From an uncultured Bacilli bacterium (lineage in GTDB: Bacteria > Bacillota_I > Bacilli_A > RF39 > UBA660), in NCBI GenBank assembly GCA_944371315.1, contig CALVXN010000002.1, positions 1,046-65,045 of the forward strand: a stretch of 64,000 nt of DNA. Direction: 5' to 3'. Every line of letters starts with the position of its first letter. Position 1 is the first letter of the stretch. A program made the translations under genes and the position numbers. Shown piece by piece: positions 5,331 to 46,950 of the stretch. The notes below the pieces were generated by a model. That model had not been told where the DNA came from and made no database searches. It worked only from the letters and a program-made list of their open reading frames with translations.

Positions 5331-5468
5331 TTATCCACATATTTTGTGGATTGTTGATAATTTGTTAATAACTATGCTTTTTTATCCACATAATTAACAA
5401 CATTTTATTAACGTGTATGTTGATAATATGTTGATATGTTATTTTTGTTATTTTTATTTTGTTGATAT
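5331..5468. promoter_or_regulatory. oriC DnaA-box cluster upstream of dnaA
   Basis: Exact TTATCCACA at 5331..5339 and 5382..5390. TGTGGATTG at 5346. TGTTGATAA at 5352..5360 and 5418..5426. TGTTGATAT at 5429 and 5460. Located in the rpmH-dnaA intergenic region. Confidence 0.85.
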
Positions 5469-5614
5469 TGTTAATAATGTCATTTTTTGTCGATTTTTAG
5501 GCCTTTTTTTGTTTATAATTTTGGGGATAATTTTTTTTGATAATTTTTCTCTTTTATTTTTATTTAAAATGGTTTAAAATGTTCTTATGGAAATATTGTA
5601 AGTGGGGTGAGGTT

Positions 5615-6967
5615 TTGAAAACGGATGAAATTTTTTCTAAATTTTTAAATGATATTCAATCTCAAGTTAGTCAAAATGCATATACAATTTGGTTTTCAAA
5701 ACTAGAACTTTTATCAATAGTTAACAATGTGGTAACTATTAAAGTTCCAATGGAAATCCACAAACAAATGTTAAGTGAAACTTATAATGATATAATTGAT
5801 GCTTCTTTTTTTTCTCTAACTGGTATTAATTATACATTTAAATATATTACAGAAGATGAGGTAGAGACATTTACTCAACCAATAATTGAAGAAGAGAAAA
5901 TTACTCACGAAATAACATGGAATACTAATTTGAATCCAAAATTTACATTTGATAGCTTTATTGTTGGAAATTCAAATAGGTTAGCTTTTGTTGCTGCTAG
6001 AGCCGTCGCTGAAGCTCCTGGAACTATCCATAATCCTTTATTTATATATGGAAGAAGTGGACTTGGAAAAACACATTTAATGCAAGCTATAGGGAATTAT
6101 ATATGCGATCATAGTGATAAAAAAGTATTATATACAACAAGTAATGAATTTATGACTGAATTTACTGGAATTGCTACAATTGATAAAGGCAGTAGCAATT
6201 TAAATTATGCGAATGAGTTTAAAAATAAGTATAGAAATGTTGATGTGTTAATAATTGATGATATACAATTTCTTGTAGGAGCTGAAAGGACACAACAGGA
6301 GTTTTTTCACACATTTAATGCATTACATCAAGCTAATAAACAAATAATTATTAGTAGTGATAAAAGTCCAGACGATTTAAAAAAAATAGAAGAGCGTCTT
6401 AGGAGTCGATTTATGTGGGGATTACCTGTTGATATTTATCCACCAGATTTTAACTTAAGATGTGAAATAATTAGAGCAAAAGTAAAAAATACTAGTATTG
6501 AAAATAAACTAACTGATGATGCAATAGATTATATCGCCAATTCTTGTGTAAATGATGTTAGACACATTGAGGGAACTATCAATAGATTACTTGCTTATTC
6601 AGCAATGATGGTTCCTGATAAAATAACTTTAGATTTTGCAAATGAAGCTTTAAAAGACTATGTTACTACAAACATATTTATCAACAATTCAATTGCTTCA
6701 ATACAAAATGCTGTTGCTGAATATTTTAAAATCTCAGTTGATGATTTAAAAAGTAAAAGAAGAACTAATAGTGTAGTCAAACCAAGGCATATTGCAATGT
6801 ATTTATGTCGCGAAGAAACTGATGAAAATTTGGCTAAAATAGGCCTAGAATTTGGTGGTAGAGATCACTCAACAGTATCAACAGCAATTGATAAAGTTAA
6901 AGAAGAATTAGAAAAAAATGATAATTTGAATAATATGTTGAAAGAAATTAAAACAAAGTTACAATAA
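5615..6967 (+). CDS. dnaA: Chromosomal replication initiator DnaA
   Basis: ORF 5537..6967. The hydrophobic N-terminal extension looks spurious. The likely start is TTG at 5615 after GGGGTGAGG, giving MKTDEIFSKFLNDIQ. Walker A GRSGLGKTHL is present, with a C-terminal DnaA-box-binding region (HSTV). ATG at 5579 is an alternative start. Confidence 0.9.
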   Translation: MKTDEIFSKFLNDIQSQVSQNAYTIWFSKLELLSIVNNVVTIKVPMEIHKQMLSETYNDIIDASFFSLTGINYTFKYITEDEVETFTQPIIEEEKITHEITWNTNLNPKFTFDSFIVGNSNRLAFVAARAVAEAPGTIHNPLFIYGRSGLGKTHLMQAIGNYICDHSDKKVLYTTSNEFMTEFTGIATIDKGSSNLNYANEFKNKYRNVDVLIIDDIQFLVGAERTQQEFFHTFNALHQANKQIIISSDKSPDDLKKIEERLRSRFMWGLPVDIYPPDFNLRCEIIRAKVKNTSIENKLTDDAIDYIANSCVNDVRHIEGTINRLLAYSAMMVPDKITLDFANEALKDYVTTNIFINNSIASIQNAVAEYFKISVDDLKSKRRTNSVVKPRHIAMYLCREETDENLAKIGLEFGGRDHSTVSTAIDKVKEELEKNDNLNNMLKEIKTKLQ

Positions 6968-7080
6968 TGTTGATAATTAATTCTAAATATTATAAGAAAA
7001 ACCGATAAATTGTGTGTTATAATTTAGTTATCAACACTAATAACATTATTAATATAAAAAAAATTATTAATATAAAAGAA
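6968..7080. promoter_or_regulatory. Second oriC part (dnaA-dnaN spacer): DnaA-box-like sites plus AT-rich stretch
   Basis: TGTTGATAA at 6968..6976 and TTATCAACA at 7028..7036, followed by an almost pure A/T run at 7037..7078. Bipartite oriC is typical for Firmicutes. Confidence 0.6.
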
Positions 7081-8298: not shown

Positions 8299-8727
8299 AT
8301 GAATTATATAATAAAAAATGACACTTTATATTTAAGGGTAAATAATGAAAGTATTTATGTAAAGGAAATTAATAATGAAATGATTTTAAATGAAAATATA
8401 ATAAAAGTGTTAAATAATAGTTGTATTTATTATGGATCATCATTAAAGGGAAGAATTTTAGGTGCAAAATCTTTAATTAAAAGTAAATATAAATTACCAC
8501 TAATAATAAGTGAAAAAAATAATTTATTTTTTATTAATATTAAAGATAAAAATGGTTATGAGTATTGGCTTAATTTCCAGTATATAAAAGATTATATATA
8601 TGTTGATAACTTGTTGAAAATATTTTTTGAATATGATAAATCATTATTAATTAATTGCTCTTGGACTATATTTAATAATCAAATGTTAAAATGTAGTAGG
8701 TTGTATGTAGTTTATTCGATGAGATAG
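8299..8727 (+). CDS. Short ComK-family-like protein
   Basis: NSCIYYGSSLKGRILGAKSLIKSKYKLPLII aligns by eye with B. subtilis ComK RSCRFFGSSYAGRKAGTYEVTKISHKPPIM. At 142 aa it is shorter than ComK. Confidence 0.5.
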   Translation: MNYIIKNDTLYLRVNNESIYVKEINNEMILNENIIKVLNNSCIYYGSSLKGRILGAKSLIKSKYKLPLIISEKNNLFFINIKDKNGYEYWLNFQYIKDYIYVDNLLKIFFEYDKSLLINCSWTIFNNQMLKCSRLYVVYSMR

Positions 8728-8800
8728 CTTGATTATTGAACATGGTTAATTATTGACAATTATAATAATATAATTTATATTATTGTTAAGAGGTGCAATA

Positions 8801-9583
8801 ATGAGTGCAGAATATGAAAATTTACGATTAAATGCTGATTTAAAGGGGTTACATTATGGTAAAGAACTTGTTGAAACAATTATGGGATATATTTTAGATA
8901 AGGAATCTCTTTGTTATGAAGAGTATTGTAAAAAGAAAGGTATTTCTGAATCTACTTTTAGGCAATATATAGATGATTTAGATAATTTTCCTATATTATG
9001 GGGTATATTTAAAGAATGTGAAAAGCTTCATAGTAGTGAAATTTCAAGAAATTCATATGATGTAATTCCTGCTATTAAAGAAAAAGCTCATTCTTTACAA
9101 AGACAAATGGATATTCTTGATTTTAGAGAAGTGACCCAATTAGATATTATTGATGTATCACGTAGAATAAATGGTGATGACTGTTATGATAAAATCCTAA
9201 TGGATAGTGTGAGTAATATAATAAAGCAATCTATTCCATTTTCTTATAATAATAGTGAAGATGCTAGCGTGTTTTTAAATATTGATTATATATCTTTGGA
9301 TGAATTAAAAAAAATAGAAAATTTTTGTAAAATAAATAGATTGCCATTTAATATTTCTGTTATTAACATTTTATTTGATGCATTTAAAACTGGAAGATAT
9401 GCTCCTGATCAAGTAATAAATGCACAAGTTCCAATAAAGGTTGATGCTGAAAGAAGGGAAAAACTTGCTGCTATTTGTCAACAAACTACATATTTAGATG
9501 ATATTAATCTTAGTATTAATAATATGCAAGAGCGTCTTAAACAAATATCAGCTAGTGAAGATGTTTCATTTGGATCAAGATAA
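8801..9583 (+). CDS. Hypothetical protein (possible HTH near the N-terminus)
   Basis: ORF 8783..9583. ATG at 8801 follows AGAGGTG. No family recognised. The GISESTFRQYIDDL segment is HTH-like. Confidence 0.55.
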   Translation: MSAEYENLRLNADLKGLHYGKELVETIMGYILDKESLCYEEYCKKKGISESTFRQYIDDLDNFPILWGIFKECEKLHSSEISRNSYDVIPAIKEKAHSLQRQMDILDFREVTQLDIIDVSRRINGDDCYDKILMDSVSNIIKQSIPFSYNNSEDASVFLNIDYISLDELKKIENFCKINRLPFNISVINILFDAFKTGRYAPDQVINAQVPIKVDAERREKLAAICQQTTYLDDINLSINNMQERLKQISASEDVSFGSR

Positions 9584-12779: not shown

Positions 12780-15227
12780 ATGGATAAAATTATTCAGAAT
12801 AATATAGTAGATGAAATAGAAAAATCATTTATAGACTATTCAATGAGTGTAATTGTTTCTCGTGCAATTCCTGATTTAAGAGATGGTTTAAAACCCGTTC
12901 ATAGAAGAATATTATATTCTATGTTTGAATCTGGTTATTTGCCTAGTGCTCAATATAAAAAATGTGCTAGAGTTGTTGGGGATGTTATGGGAAAATATCA
13001 TCCTCATGGGGATAGTTCAATTTATGAAGCTTTAGTAAGAATGGCTCAAGATTTTAGTTATAGATATATGTTAATTGATGGCCATGGAAACTTTGGTAAT
13101 ATGGACGGCGATGGTGCTGCTGCATATCGTTATACTGAATCAAGGTTAGCTAAAATTTCTTTAGAATTATTAAGAGATATTAATAAAAATACTGTAAATT
13201 TTGTTCCAAATTTTGATGAATCTTTAGAAGAACCAGAAGTATTACCTAGTAGATTTCCTAATATTTTAGTAAATGGAACTATGGGTATAGCAGTTGGTAT
13301 GGCAACTAATATTCCTCCTCATAATTTAGGAGAAGTAATTGATGGCTGTGTTGCTTATATAGATAATCCTGACATTGATACTGATGGTTTAATGCAATAC
13401 ATTAAAGGTCCCGATTTTCCAACTGGAGCTTTAATTTTAGGAAATTCTGGAATAAAAAAAGCTTATGAAACTGGAAAAGGTTCAATTACTATTAGATGTA
13501 AAGCAGAAATAGAAGAAGAAGGTAGCAAACATAGAATTGTTATTACGGAAATACCTTATGGGTTAAATACTTTAGAGTTAAAAAAACGTATTGGAGAACT
13601 AGTTAGAGATAAAATATTGGATGGAATTTCTGATTATCATGAAGAAACAAATTTAGAAAATGGAATTAAAATTGTAATTACGTTAAAAAAAGATGCCAAT
13701 GGCAGTGTTGTTTTAAATAATTTATATAAACATACTCAATTGCAAACTAGTTATGGTATTAATTTATTAATGATTGATAATGGTGTTCCAAAAACTCTAG
13801 GTTTAAAAAGCATTATTTCTAAGTATATTGATTTTCAAAGGGAAGTAATTGTAAGAAGAACACAATTTGAACTTGATAAAGCAGAAAAAAGAGTTCATAT
13901 CTTAGAAGGTTATAAAATAGCTTTGGATAACATTGATGAAGTAATTAAAATAATTAAGGAATCTAAAGCAGATGCTGATGCAAAAGCCAAATTAATGAGC
14001 AGATTTGGATTAAGCGAAGTTCAAACTGATAATATTTTAGAACTTAAATTACGTCGTTTAACAGGCTTAGAACGTGAAAAGATTGAAGAAGAGTTAAATG
14101 CCTTACATATAGAAATAGATCGCTTACGTGGCATTTTAGCTGATAATAACAAGGTATTAAATATAATTAAAGAAGAAATGTTAGAAATTAAGCAAAAATA
14201 TAGTGATGAACGTAGAACTAAAATTGATATGACTGCTATTGATTATATTGAGGATGAATCATTAATTCCTGAAGAAAATGTATTAATAGTATTAACACAT
14301 AATGGATACATTAAAAGGACAACCTCTGATACATTTAAAGCTCAAAATAGAGGCGGCGTTGGAATAAAAGGAATGTCAACAAATGATGAAGACTTCGTTG
14401 AACATATGATTAATTTATCAACACATGATTTTGTATTATTCTTTACAAATAAAGGTAAAGTTTATAGGTTAAAAGGTTATGAAATTCCTGAATATAGTAG
14501 GCAATCTAAAGGACTACCAATAATTAATTTGTTACAAATAGAAAAAGAAGAAAAAGTAAATGCCGTTGTTGCAATTAATAAAAATGAAAATTATAAATAT
14601 TTATTATTCGCTACTAAACAAGGTATAGTAAAAAGAACTTTAATATCCGAGTTTGAAAATATTAGAAATAGTGGTAAGTTATCTATTACTTTAAGAGAAA
14701 AGGATGAACTTATCGATGTAAAAAAGACATCTGGAGAAAACTTTGTTTTATTAGGTAGCAGTAGTGGAAGAATGGTTAAATTTAATGAGCAAGATATTAG
14801 AGTTATGGGTAGAACAGCATGTGGAGTCAGGGGTATAAATCTTGAAGATTCTAGCTGCATTTGTTGTGAAATTGTTGATGAAAATTCTGTTATAATATTA
14901 GTTACAGAAAAAGGTTTTGGCAAACAAACAAATGTTCGTGAATACAGAGAAACTAAAAGAGGTAGTAAAGGTGTTAAAGCACTAAATGTAACTGAAAAAA
15001 ATGGTAATTTAGTTTCAGTTAAAGTAGTTGAAGATGATAAAGAACTTGTTATAATGACTGATTCTGGTATGACTATGAGAATGCCCATTAATCAAATATC
15101 GGTTTTAGGAAGAGTTACACAAGGTGTAAGATTAATCAATCTAAAAGATCAACAAAAAGTATCAACGATTAGTTTAGTAGATAAAGAAGATAACAATTTA
15201 AAAGAAAATATTAATGAAGAATCATAG
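12780..15227 (+). CDS. gyrA: DNA gyrase subunit A
   Basis: [12 protein letters not shown], the QRDR region [11 protein letters not shown] and the active-site AAYRYTE are all present. 815 aa. Confidence 0.95.
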
Positions 15228-15244
15228 AAATATGATTCTTTTTT
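15218..15244 (+). terminator. gyrA intrinsic terminator
   Basis: AGAATCATA-GAAA-TATGATTCT stem-loop overlapping the stop codon, followed by a T-run that leads into the first parS. Confidence 0.7.
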
Positions 15245-15259
15245 GTTTCACGTGAAACA
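15244..15259. promoter_or_regulatory. parS site 1 (ParB/Spo0J centromere site)
   Basis: TGTTTCACGTGAAACA, a perfect 16-bp palindrome that matches the Firmicute parS consensus TGTTNCACGTGAAACA. Confidence 0.85.
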
Positions 15260-15346
15260 TTTATATTTATTTATTTACTTTTTTATATATATAATCTATT
15301 TATAAAATTTGTTAATGGATATCATTATTTAATAAAAAATTTGTTA

Positions 15347-15362
15347 CGTTTCACGTGAAACA
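15347..15362. promoter_or_regulatory. parS site 2, followed by a DnaA-box-like 9-mer
   Basis: CGTTTCACGTGAAACA (15/16 match to consensus). TGTTGATAA at 15366..15374 begins 4 nt after the site. Confidence 0.8.
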
Positions 15363-15517
15363 TCATGTTGATAACTTGTTTTTAATTTAAAAATTATATA
15401 TTTTGATAATTTAAAATCGAATATTTAAAATAAAAAATTTTGTTAATACTTTTATTATATTTTATCAAATATTTATATAATATTATTTAAACATTATTAT
15501 TATCATTTTATTTGTTA

Positions 15518-15533
15518 TGTTCCACGTGAAACA
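15518..15533. promoter_or_regulatory. parS site 3, followed by a DnaA-box-like 9-mer
   Basis: TGTTCCACGTGAAACA, identical to the B. subtilis parS consensus as I recall it. TGTTGATAA at 15537..15545 begins 4 nt after the site. Confidence 0.85.
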
Positions 15534-15656
15534 TTATGTTGATAATTTCTGTTTAATTTTTAAATTACATTCTTTTGTAAATATTTTTATTATATTTTTT
15601 ACAACAACAATATTAAAAGTAGTATCACTTTTATTTTAGTTATTTGTTTTATTTAA

Positions 15657-15672
15657 TGTTTCACGTGAAACA
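15657..15672. promoter_or_regulatory. parS site 4, followed by a DnaA-box-like 9-mer
   Basis: TGTTTCACGTGAAACA. TGTTGATAA at 15676..15684 begins 4 nt after the site. Confidence 0.85.
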
Positions 15673-15873
15673 TTGTGTTGATAAGATGTTTATAAATTTA
15701 TTATAATATAATTTTGATAAAATATTGTTTATAATATTTTAATAATTTAATTTGAATTCATAAATATGTTAATAAATTGTTTATTTATAAAGAAACTTTG
15801 TTCAAATTTGGTTATTTATTGCTAGTTATATATTATTACTTTTATTTTGTTAATAAAATGTTATTTATTATAA

Positions 15874-15889
15874 TGTTTCACGTGAAACA
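15874..15889. promoter_or_regulatory. parS site 5
   Basis: TGTTTCACGTGAAACA, a perfect palindrome with no adjacent DnaA-like box. Confidence 0.85.
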
Positions 15890-16007
15890 TTAAATAGAAA
15901 ACGAACAAATGTTTTAATTATTTTGAAATAATAAACAAATTTTACTTAATTTTAAAGATAAATTGCTTTTTTTCGTGCTAATTTATATATTTTTAATTAT
16001 TAGTAAA

Positions 16008-16025
16008 TTATTTCCCGGGAAATAA
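16008..16025. promoter_or_regulatory. 18-bp perfect palindrome TTATTTCCCGGGAAATAA just upstream of the SRP RNA promoter (unknown operator?)
   Basis: Perfect dyad ending 15 bp before the -35 element. The same 17-mer, TTATTTCCCGGGAAATA, recurs at 1927..1943 inside mnmE. Confidence 0.3.
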
Positions 16026-16039
16026 TTGTTGAATTTTTA

Positions 16040-16068
16040 TTGACAGTAAAATATTATTTTGATATTAT
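16040..16068 (+). promoter_or_regulatory. SigA-type promoter of the SRP RNA
   Basis: TTGACA (16040..16045), a 17-bp spacer, then TATTAT (16063..16068). Confidence 0.7.
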
Positions 16069-16074
16069 CAATTT

Positions 16075-16146
16075 GTGCAACAATTATGCTGTAACTTGGT
16101 CAGAATCGGAAGATAGCAGCCACATCAGTCTCTAATTGTGTGCACT
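16075..16146 (+). ncRNA. ffs: Small (4.5S-type) signal recognition particle RNA
   Basis: GGTCAGAATCGGAAGATAGCAGCC matches the conserved domain IV (GGUCAG..GGAA tetraloop..AGCAGCC). The 5' GTGCAACAATTA pairs with the 3' TAATTGTGTGCAC, followed by a T-run. It sits upstream of tadA and dnaX, as scr does in Bacillus. The ends are approximate. Confidence 0.8.
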
Positions 16147-16166
16147 TTTTATTTGGAGGAATTAAT

Positions 16167-16586
16167 ATGTTAGAATACTTTGAATATATTCTTAAATTGG
16201 CTAATAATTCTTTAGTTACAGATGATATTCCGGTAGGTGCTATTATTGTAAAAAATAATGAAATAATAGGAGAAGGTTGGAATACAAGAGAAAAAGATAA
16301 CTTTATTTTGGGACATGCAGAAATTAATGCTATTAAAATGGCATCTAATTATTTAAATAGCTGGAATTTATCCGATTGTGAGCTATATGTTACCTTAAAA
16401 CCTTGCTCAATGTGTTTAGAAGTTATAAAACAATCTAGAATAAAAAATGTTTATTATTTATTAGAAAAGCCTAGCAATAAAAGGGAATTTTCTAAAACTC
16501 TTGTTAATTGTATTAATATTGACCCTTTAAGAATTAATTATGAGAGAAAATTAAGTGATTTTTTTAAGAAATTAAGAGAAAAATAA
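16167..16586 (+). CDS. tadA: tRNA-specific adenosine deaminase TadA
   Basis: ORF 16140..16586. ATG at 16167 follows GGAGG. Deaminase zinc motifs HAEINAI and PCSMC are present. Confidence 0.85.
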   Translation: MLEYFEYILKLANNSLVTDDIPVGAIIVKNNEIIGEGWNTREKDNFILGHAEINAIKMASNYLNSWNLSDCELYVTLKPCSMCLEVIKQSRIKNVYYLLEKPSNKREFSKTLVNCINIDPLRINYERKLSDFFKKLREK

Positions 16587-27356: not shown

Positions 27357-27959
27357 GTGTTAAATATGAATTATTTAGAAAGAGTAGATAAAAATTTATT
27401 AATTCTTTTTGTTATAACTACAGCAACTTTATTAATATTATATGTTATTTTTTCATCTATTTTAAGTAAAGCAAATAAAACAATTTATGAAGAAAAAAAT
27501 ATATTTGCTTGGATTCCAATTTTTAATCTTTATTTATTAGGAAAAATAGCTATAAATAAAATAATTGGAGTTATATTAGTTTTAATAGAATTTTTGATTG
27601 GTTTTTTGAGTAGTATTCCATATTTTCAAAATGTAATTCCTAGTTATATTGTAGATATTTTAAGTTTAGTTTTTATATTTGTAATTATAATATTATTTTT
27701 TATAGTATTAGCAAAATATTTTAAGGTTAAAAAAAGAAAAAGAACCGTTTATGTAAATTATGTATCTCCAAATGATGATAATGGTAATAATGTTGATAAT
27801 AATCAATTTATCAACAAAAATTTTGTAAATAATCAAAATGTCTCTAATGATCAAAAAATTGTAGGAGATTCTTTTGAATTACCAAAAGTAGATAATAGTT
27901 ATTTAAATTTAAATAAAAAAAATAATGATGATATTGAAAATTTAGATGATAATAGTTAA
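27357..27959 (+). CDS. Membrane protein with an Asn/Asp-rich C-terminal tail
   Basis: Three to four TM segments followed by a low-complexity N-rich tail. The start is either GTG at 27357 or ATG at 27366. Confidence 0.5.
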   Translation: MLNMNYLERVDKNLLILFVITTATLLILYVIFSSILSKANKTIYEEKNIFAWIPIFNLYLLGKIAINKIIGVILVLIEFLIGFLSSIPYFQNVIPSYIVDILSLVFIFVIIILFFIVLAKYFKVKKRKRTVYVNYVSPNDDNGNNVDNNQFINKNFVNNQNVSNDQKIVGDSFELPKVDNSYLNLNKKNNDDIENLDDNS

Positions 27960-27999
27960 ATTATTGCTAAATTAAATTTGTTATGATAAACTAATTTTG

Positions 28000-28195
28000 A
28001 ATTAGTGATGAAAGAAAGAGTAAATATAGGATTTTTATAGAGAGTTCTTTGTTGGTGGAAGAAGAATATTTGAATATATTGAACATGGTTCTGGAGCTAA
28101 ACCGGAGATAAACCGTTATAATATTTGAGTGCATGTAATCATGAATTAAGGTGGTACCGCGGGTTTTACTCGTCCTTAGTTTGTGATTTTTATTT
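28000..28195 (+). promoter_or_regulatory. T-box leader (candidate Met specifier)
   Basis: Stem I elements are present: TGATGA...AGAGTA GA-type motif, AGAGAG at 28039..28044 and the distal-loop GGTGGAA at 28054..28060. The T-box sequence AATTAAGGTGGTACCGCG is at 28144..28161, with TAAGG/CCTTA antiterminator arms. A candidate AUG specifier lies at 28085..28087. Confidence 0.8.
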
Positions 28196-46900: not shown

Positions 46901-46950
46901 GGAACTTTAAAAAAGGCCACGTCGGCATCTTAAACCGACGTGGTCCGACT
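46731..46950. other. Compositionally foreign patch (about 48% GC by hand count) covering the last ~170 nt of the CDS plus a GC-rich hairpin
   Basis: Codons CTG, CGT, AGC, GGC, GCG and GTG appear abruptly here. Hairpin GGCCACGTCGG (46915..46925) / CCGACGTGGTCC (46935..46946) is preceded by an A6 run and has no T-run after it. Confidence 0.8.

Follow-up and report, generated by a model that had tools for sequence, protein, structure and literature searches.

The window analysed here is a stretch of 64,000 nucleotides from an uncultured Bacilli bacterium, and it comprises the origin region of the genome. The intergenic spacer downstream of gyrA contains five parS sites, and three of them are followed by the 9-mer TGTTGATAA, a predicted variant of the DnaA box, always in the same orientation. 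A comparison with related genomes indicated that this adjacency is not a matter of chance. Pairing and orientation of the putative boxes were found to be conserved, while the distance from box to parS varies, and the composite is not present in all relatives. The reading favored here is a selected functional juxtaposition of DnaA box and parS of a one-sided steric kind, and we consider it about equally probable that this reading is right or wrong.

A tandem array of parS and putative DnaA boxes

Five copies of the 14-nt parS core were found in the window (15245, 15348, 15519, 15658, and 15875), compared with 0.11 expected. They are located 8.3–8.9 kb downstream of the dnaA stop codon, in the first long spacer past the genes dnaA-dnaN-recF-gyrB-gyrA. 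The consensus is the 16-bp palindrome TGTTNCACGTGAAACA, which four of the five sites match at 16/16 positions, and one site deviates at its first base (Table 1). The original prediction had claimed that sites 2, 3, and 4 are each followed by TGTTGATAA after 3 nt, and it was verified that this is the case at 15366, 15537, and 15676, all on the plus strand. The gap can be counted in two ways, and 3 nt past the 16-mer equal an offset of 4 from the 14-nt core. The intervening trinucleotides are TCA, TTA, and TTG at sites 2, 3, and 4, respectively. A second box follows at +11 in units 2 and 4 and is missing from unit 3. Only three clusters of boxes with at most one mismatch exist in the window, namely the boxes at 15366–15676, those of oriC, and those of a coding region at ~49.9–50.0 kb. 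With three boxes in one short intergenic region near the origin, the first of these has the outline of a datA-like titration locus. Apart from the boxes, it was observed that the palindromes of the window's own parS sites extend only 0–4 bp beyond the core, and that a separate AT-rich hairpin with a T-run is located ahead of parS site 1 (~15218–15245).

The identical gap of the three units has a simple origin. A 93-nt stretch is present three times with an identity of 71%, and the whole units 2–4 can be aligned across ~140–170 nt with a column identity of 72%. Units 2–4 are diverged tandem copies (139–171 bp) of one ancestral module, and they share the 3-nt gap because they were duplicated from one ancestral unit. 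As the units are not independent, the identical phasing represents one event and not three, and the 3-nt gap is a duplication product, not a design rule. Neither parS nor the 9-mer varies among the three units, whereas divergence has affected the flanks and the two bases in between (CA, TA, and TG). At the level of the alignment, this invariance of both motifs amid a diverged spacer and diverged flanks shows selection on both of them. A contig of the same species (L090) lacks exactly one 139-bp unit, the left flank of parS 3 being joined to the right flank of parS 4 (L090 1–600 compared with window 15458–16147), which could be due to recombination between the repeats or to a collapse in a low-coverage short-read assembly. 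Another contig of the same species (L087) seemed to be devoid of units 3 and 4, and the alignment revealed a scaffold gap of Ns and not a deletion.

Four lines of evidence characterize TGTTGATAA as a predicted DnaA-box variant: its presence in the flanks of oriC, the consensus box TGTGGATAA at its place in relatives, the second box at +11, and a conserved domain IV of DnaA. Its reverse complement TTATCAACA has one mismatch to the DnaA-box consensus TTATCCACA, at position 6. In the window the oriC flanks contain four TTATCAACA boxes and two consensus TTATCCACA boxes, so the statement that the variant dominates this oriC was fair. In the dnaA flanks of 65 related loci 142 consensus (G-type) and 87 T-type boxes were found, which adds up to 229. 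The consensus TGTGGATAA is present at the homologous place beside parS in L001, L013, L017, L023, L032, L036, L042, and other relatives. The G-type or T-type state of the box (position 4) followed the oriC preference of the respective genome only as a trend (odds ratio 2.4, p = 0.09).

In 77 de-duplicated low-GC composites, a second direct box with at least 7/9 matches was found on the downstream side at a distance of exactly 11 bp in 25% of the cases, compared with 0–4% at other offsets. In the oriC of Escherichia coli a strong anchor box is followed by weak sites with a 2-bp spacing in the same direction, and the succession of a strong and a weaker box described here corresponds to this layout. 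Domain IV of the encoded DnaA can be aligned to the DnaA proteins of Bacillus subtilis, E. coli, and Mycobacterium tuberculosis (E = 6e-29 to 5e-16). It was also observed that domain IV (window 6551–6964) contains the motif GGRDHSTVSTA, compared with GGRDHTTVLHA in E. coli and GGRDHTTV(L/I)HA as the common form of E. coli and B. subtilis. The changes are located at what we take to be base-contacting positions (T435S and H439T, E. coli numbering), and they could be related to a tolerance of A at position 6 of the box.

The 9-mer TGTTGATAA is present in the window in 22 copies, compared with expectations of 2.3 (dinucleotide shuffles) and 3.6 (order-3 Markov model), and it is the commonest 9-mer among those with two or more G/C. 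The original prediction had considered that the 9-mer might be as frequent as expected by chance, which is at variance with these numbers and with an adjacency to parS beyond that of random re-placement (see below). Eight copies lie outside of open reading frames (ORFs) of at least 100 aa, of which four flank dnaA (5352, 5418, 6968, and 7028), three belong to the parS array, and one is located at 46950. Five of the coding copies are found within 2.5 kb at 50.6–53.0 kb, all on the plus strand (50612, 50654, 51290, 51962, and 53020). The coding copies may reflect codon usage (V-D-N/K, L-I) or scattered DnaA boxes. An inverted pair of the 9-mer at 27791/27808 was considered as a DnaA-box cluster and rejected: a small membrane-protein ORF has an N/D-rich tail at this place, and the pair reads as codon usage.

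Pairing of parS and DnaA boxes in related genomes

For the comparison, 80 species-level loci were picked via GyrA, a choice that was unbiased as to the motifs, and 726 parS flanks were scanned. A strict box was defined as TGTKGATAA, a box was called outward when its TGT end was directed toward parS, and offsets were counted from the 14-nt core. At offsets of 0–15, 34 strict boxes were outward and 4 were inverted (p = 6e-7), at a background of 0.13 per offset. Outward boxes at a distance of at most 10 nt from parS were found 30 times, compared with 4.8 ± 2.1 on random re-placement inside their own arrays. Counted by locus, 19 loci had an adjacent outward box versus 4.6 at random, and the maximum in 2000 simulations was 13. 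When one mismatch was allowed, an outward box was present at offsets of 1–9 at 20.8% of the parS sites, compared with 1.5% in distal controls and 4.9% for inverted boxes. In addition, an unbiased count of all 9-mers in the ten positions beside parS was performed for 81 related genomes. It was revealed that the top 9-mer is TGTTGATAA itself, with 20 copies in 11 loci versus 3 copies in four times as many control positions, followed by TGTTAATAA (12 copies) and TGTGGATAA (11 copies).

In the nearest clade (the window and L001–L003, with GyrA 87–88% identical) each internal parS has a box with at most two mismatches on its gyrA-distal flank, and the first and the last parS sites are without a box. 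The offsets from the 14-nt core are 4 in the window, 6, 6, and 2 in L001, 5 and 5 in L002, and 6, 4, and 5 in L003; elsewhere offsets of 2, 3, 7, 8, 10, and 11 were found. In a second clade of eight species each array holds a single composite, which is located on the other flank; its offset is 2 in seven species and 3 in one. Taken over all loci, the pairing recurs at differing gaps and with TGTGGATAA in at least nine separate GyrA clusters. A search for the same gap in independent lineages, as a test for a composite operator of fixed geometry, was negative. The conservation of the composite in related genomes, which had been named as a check of the original prediction, was thus found for the side of the box in the closest relatives and for the pairing elsewhere, but neither for the gap nor for most of the more distant relatives, which have parS arrays without a strict box. 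Likewise, the proposal that the two motifs are read together is retained insofar as their association is non-random, oriented, and kept in relatives, and its argument from a fixed 3-nt gap was given up, as this gap stems from duplication in the window and varies in relatives.

A metagenome scan with the pattern CACGTGAAACA-N(0-10)-TGTKGATAA yielded at least 120 loci. Among the matches listed, low-GC contigs, in which the composite is mostly located after gyrA, had gaps past the 16-mer of 1, 2, 3, and 4 bp in 24, 8, 9, and 5 of 51 cases (chi-square p = 3e-19), and several of them have the 3-bp gap of the window. Contigs of 39–71% GC among the matches listed have a full parS and a consensus box 0–10 bp away in origin-proximal spacers, directly after mnmE or near rsmG/parB. 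As a side result, unrelated mid-GC contigs among the matches listed (GC of 0.44–0.54; L094, L097, L110, L123, L141, L172, L183, and L203) have a full parS, mostly within ~20 bp of the end of mnmE, and downstream of it ATCCACA-NN(N)-TGTGGATAA. The latter represents an inverted DnaA-box pair, the first box of which overlaps the parS end.

Several observations were made on the parS arrays of the relatives independent of the boxes. The presence of parS in the first spacer after gyrA is lineage-wide (~77 of the 80 related species, 1–18 sites), and many arrays are regular, with periods of 28, 36, 37, 41, 53, 74, 84, 126, and 141–154 bp. Examples are L006 with 11 sites at 53 bp, L043 with 7 at 37 bp, L051 with 6 at 36 bp, L063 with 4 at 28 bp, and L004 with 17 at 141–154 bp. 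A perfect palindrome that reaches at least 6 bp past the 14-nt core was found at 22% of the parS sites of L001–L080, compared with 2% after the flanks had been swapped. The extended arms differ between sites (examples are L001 8136, L002 12496, and L029 13364), which suggests either palindrome-correcting mutation or that the ability to form hairpins or cruciforms is selected for. The first parS of the nearest relatives has such extended arms, is followed by a T-run, and resembles an intrinsic terminator of gyrA (L001 8127–8170, L003 12498–12545, and L002 12487–12530).

ParB-family proteins and possible roles of the pairing

A ParB-family protein of 370 aa is encoded directly after rsmG in contigs of the same species (L081 14687–15799, to the left of the window), and its gene is followed by one for a penicillin-binding protein on the opposite strand. 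The protein obtained its best score with the Noc model (272 bits, below the cut-off of 315), and it has Q-K-T-R at the four specificity positions, which is of the Noc type. The same arrangement is found in L007, where the ParB-family gene (1194–2666) is without an adjacent parA and the specificity residues are Q-K-N-R. In ParB orthologs R173 and G201 (Caulobacter numbering) are invariant, and the Noc state is Q-K-K-R (Jalal et al., PMC7383237). No parA was found next to the ParB-family gene in L081 or L007, and the deviant Walker-A motif of ParA had no match in the window or in the loci of the 80 relatives, a search that covers these loci only. Motif and tblastn searches did not reveal another ParB-family gene in the window or in the low-GC loci. 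The original prediction had built on the regulation of DnaA by ParA/Soj, and this link remained unsupported: parA was not observed, and the sole gene of the ParB family that was found is of the Noc type.

In keeping with a protein of the Noc type, sites for Noc are present in the same spacers. Perfect palindromes of the Noc-binding site (NBS, ATTTCCCGGGAAAT) occur twice in the window, once in the intergenic region of the parS array (Table 1) and once at 1929–1942, and they were also observed in the arrays of L042, L056, L061, L072, L092, L099, L116, L126, and L204. In the relatives the density of perfect Noc sites is 13-fold higher within the array zone than outside of it, and such a site lies in this zone in 28 of 70 loci. 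Some tandem units of relatives consist of parS and NBS, and a group similar to CAG:710 repeats the order parS-A-T-TGTGGATAA-(4-5 nt)-NBS. In Staphylococcus aureus Noc restrains DnaA-dependent initiation.

It is tempting to speculate how a juxtaposition of DnaA box and parS might act. In this reading, the spacer after gyrA is a centromere-like array with five parS sites within 650 bp at ~8–10 kb from dnaA, and its module consists of parS, a predicted strong box TGTTGATAA a few bp beyond on the origin-distal side, and a weaker box 2 bp further in two of three units. DnaA would occupy the box pair, and its oligomer would grow away from parS. ParB would load at parS, and each internal loading site would be flanked by bound DnaA on one side only. 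In one version, DnaA occupancy would gate or block the loading and sliding of ParB on the box side; in the other version, ParB clamps would displace DnaA. With either version, the segregation complex would assemble in a manner linked to the status of the initiator, and the titration of DnaA on early-replicated DNA could be an added or alternative role. The gap varies from 1 to ~9 bp, therefore a rigid contact of DnaA and ParB at a fixed distance is unlikely, and a one-sided steric effect appears more likely than a rigid protein-protein contact. The DnaA and parS systems thus probably meet on the DNA without a rigid module of fixed gap. A far-reaching extension would be an integrated hub in this lineage of gut Bacilli with small genomes, with tandem units of parS, an oriented DnaA box pair, and NBS. 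Depending on its orientation, DnaA would assist or gate the loading of ParB in ParA-less cells. This would couple initiation, segregation, and nucleoid occlusion independent of ParA, and the same juxtaposition in unrelated phyla would represent a widespread overlooked design; as a whole we regard this extension as unlikely.

Several observations weigh against a selected juxtaposition. A strict box is found at only ~9% of the parS sites, and the composite is present in 19–22 of ~78 related genomes; about three quarters of the related genomes keep parS arrays without a strict adjoining box, and many regular arrays have none. As the gap varies, the rotational setting of both proteins is not kept. 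The box is gyrA-distal in some clades and gyrA-proximal in others, and its direction with respect to oriC is therefore not consistent. In the window 14 of the 22 copies of TGTTGATAA are located within ORFs of at least 100 aa, and the abundance of the 9-mer may partly be codon usage. The loci of the metagenome scan were selected by the pattern, and they inform about occurrence and context, not about enrichment. Among the matches listed, the opposite flank of the scanned parS sites had a box in 0 of 133 cases, and a symmetric box-parS-box layout was rejected on this basis. Furthermore, a canonical parS-binding ParB (R...G) was not found in ~85 kb of this species around oriC, despite the perfect parS arrays. 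It is presumably encoded elsewhere in the genome; in S. aureus the canonical ParB is encoded elsewhere in the genome.

As an alternative, the spacer might be a DnaA-box cluster only, which would serve titration or DnaA-dependent transcription, and the adjacency to parS would be incidental, because both motifs collect near oriC and were duplicated together. The three strict boxes and the degenerate ones near oriC, the copying of the units as blocks, and the accumulation of Noc sites in the same spacers are in accordance with this view. So are the origin-proximal DnaA-box clusters of B. subtilis, the deletion of which leads to early initiation and which interact with spo0J (PMC3245932). However, random re-placement in the same arrays does not reproduce the observed number of adjacent outward boxes, titration alone does not lead one to expect the bias in orientation, and in four species all internal sites have retained the box at the same side despite the drift of the spacers. 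Overall, this explanation appears rather doubtful.

It would also be conceivable that one chance copy of TGTTGATAA came to lie next to one parS and was amplified in tandem without any function, the word being common in an AT-rich genome. The paralogy of units 2–4 and the frequency of the 9-mer in coding sequences fit to such hitch-hiking, and a copy within a few nt of one of the five parS sites, if taken as a single event, would be only mildly improbable, with a chance roughly estimated from the 9-mer frequency in the window to be ~0.02–0.05. This explanation is already strained by the re-placement test, by the mismatch-tolerant counts, and by the unbiased ranking of 9-mers. Moreover, it has to cope with a core that is invariant in three copies while two spacer bases and the flanks diverged, with the recurrence of the pairing at other gaps and with TGTGGATAA in the separate GyrA clusters, and with the second box at +11, and thus it was judged to be improbable. 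Very improbable is a promoter element, in which TTGATA within the 9-mer would be a −35 hexamer and the units would fire toward the SRP RNA, tadA, and dnaX: TTGATA-18-TATAAT at 15678–15707 has 11/12 matches and weaker versions at 15368 and 15539 have 9/12 each, but the 20 promoter-like sites are no real excess over 14.3 ± 4.0 in shuffles, units 2 and 3 are without a good −10 element, TGTGGATAA of the relatives contains the poorer −35 element TGGATA, the box of many relatives is located on the opposite flank and strand, and a near-consensus promoter of the SRP RNA itself was found at 16040.

To our knowledge, the coupling of initiation and segregation is well worked out in few model species only, usually via ParA, and Caulobacter is the single well-known case of DnaA at a centromere, for which we know of no clear sequence rule. 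The original prediction had supposed that a module of ParB and DnaA sites was undescribed, which has to be corrected. In Caulobacter crescentus DnaA boxes are located inside the parS centromere, DnaA binds there, and DnaA-ATP is needed to start segregation (Mera, Kalogeraki and Shapiro, 2014, as reported in PMC6399470 and PMC11151105). As far as these reports describe it, the systems have in common that initiator boxes lie within a ParB-binding centromere near the origin, and a link between initiator activity and the onset of segregation was proposed there. The array described here differs in that it belongs to a Bacillota lineage, has Firmicute-type 16-mer parS sites, oriented tandem modules, and a gap of 1–9 bp, and is predicted from the sequence. 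In addition, the effect in Caulobacter is described in these reports as ParA-driven translocation, while no parA was seen beside the ParB-family gene here.

Further systems share single features with the array. The origin-proximal clusters of DnaA boxes in B. subtilis restrain initiation and interact genetically with spo0J (PMC3245932; PMC2533591). They are likewise located outside of oriC in origin-proximal intergenic regions, but they were not described as abutting parS, whereas a strong box in a set orientation lies 1–9 bp from parS here. The cisII/cisMP repeat arrays of Deinococcus radiodurans interact sequence-specifically with DnaA and the cognate ParB (PMC7671480), and they are also direct-repeat arrays with sites for DnaA and ParB, which are predicted sites in the present case. 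In contrast, the arrays of Deinococcus belong to secondary replicons, are located upstream of parAB, and represent origin and centromere, while the array described here is on the main chromosome, 8–10 kb from oriC, and gave no sign of an origin function. On chromosome II of Vibrio cholerae the spreading of ParB (ParB2) at rctA/parS2 modulates initiator binding and couples segregation to replication (PMC3688505). With a centromere site amid initiator-binding regulatory sites it is a functional analogue, but its initiator is RctB and not DnaA, and the architecture and the proteins are unrelated.

The regular parS arrays of the relatives resemble plasmid centromeres made of tandem repeats such as sopC of the F plasmid, in which head-to-tail repeats contain one inverted-repeat site of the ParB type each. 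Unlike in sopC, the arrays described here are chromosomal, have canonical chromosomal parS sites, and may also hold DnaA or Noc sites in their units.

According to the reports cited above, Caulobacter already provides a case in which DnaA binds to a parS centromere. What is new is the sequence rule, which comprises the orientation, a gap of 1–9 bp, and the box pair. Also new are the arrays of tandem modules, the presence of Noc sites at the same place, and the fact that parA appears to be lacking. The window thus provides a conserved rule at the sequence level: a strong DnaA box, the TGT end of which is directed inward, is separated from parS by 1–9 bp and is often followed by a weaker box after another 2 bp. 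The lineage with this rule is one in which parA was not observed, and other phyla have similar pairs. If DnaA indeed gated the loading of ParB, this would be a simple and general coupling mechanism; if it did not, the array would still be a clear example of a chromosomal tandem-repeat centromere. The unit is short enough for direct testing.

Genomic setting of the array

The window has a GC content of 25% and uses the standard genetic code, and the sign of the GC skew switches at ~5 kb. The genes mnmE-jag-yidC-rnpA-rpmH on the minus strand are followed by dnaA (5537–6967), dnaN, a ComK-like gene, an unassigned ORF, recF, gyrB, and gyrA. Beyond the spacer of ~900 bp after gyrA, the small SRP RNA and the genes tadA-dnaX-ybaB-recR-holB-ricT-trmN-pth-mfd are located. 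The top GyrA matches among species-representative genomes are 88% identical. Close GyrA matches all belong to metagenome-assembled genomes (MAGs) from gut, which are named "uncultured Bacilli," "Tenericutes," Candidatus Caccenecus, Candidatus Scybalousia, and Clostridium sp. CAG:710.

Table 1. Features of the parS array, of oriC, and of the array boundaries in the window.
Feature	Position	Strand	Remark
parS site 1, TGTTTCACGTGAAACA	15244..15259		17 nt past the gyrA stop codon; without adjoining DnaA box
parS site 2, CGTTTCACGTGAAACA	15347..15362		first base C; strain variant with T at 15347
parS site 3, TGTTCCACGTGAAACA	15518..15533		16-mer match
parS site 4, TGTTTCACGTGAAACA	15657..15672		16-mer match
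parS site 5, TGTTTCACGTGAAACA	15874..15889		without adjoining DnaA box
Predicted DnaA-box variant TGTTGATAA (reverse complement TTATCAACA)	15366..15374	+	3 nt past parS 2
Predicted DnaA-box variant TGTTGATAA	15537..15545	+	3 nt past parS 3
Predicted DnaA-box variant TGTTGATAA	15676..15684	+	3 nt past parS 4
Degenerate second box TGTTTTTAA	15377..15385	+	11 bp start-to-start from first box, same direction; 2 mismatches
Second box TGTTTATAA	15687..15695	+	1 mismatch to TGTTGATAA; 11 bp start-to-start from first box
Three diverged tandem copies of one module of parS and box	15337..15739	+	start-to-start 171 and 139 bp
Perfect Noc-binding-site palindrome TATTTCCCGGGAAATA	16009..16024		same intergenic region as the parS array
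oriC DnaA boxes upstream of dnaA	5331..5426		TTATCCACA at 5331 and 5382; TGTTGATAA at 5352 and 5418, each followed by a second box at +11
oriC DnaA boxes between dnaA and dnaN	6968..7036		TGTTGATAA at 6968 (+) and 7028 (−)
gyrA	12780..15227	+	last gene of the dnaA-dnaN-recF-gyrB-gyrA block; origin-side boundary of the array
Small SRP RNA gene	16066..16161	+	far boundary of the intergenic region; promoter-like TTGACA-17-TATTAT at 16040–16068

Several minor observations were made on the neighboring genes. The ORF of the ComK family between dnaN and recF is located at 8299–8727 (Pfam E = 2e-20). The next ORF (8783–9583) encodes 266 aa and has no family match; it is absent from three of four contigs of the same species (L081, L082, and L084) and is thus strain-variable. 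Downstream of the array, a mechanically called ORF at 16140–16586, which starts with GTG at 16140, overlaps the SRP RNA; in contigs of the same species, tadA was called from a start codon 27 nt further downstream, which yields a product of 139 aa. A T-box leader is located at 27999–28180 (106 bits).

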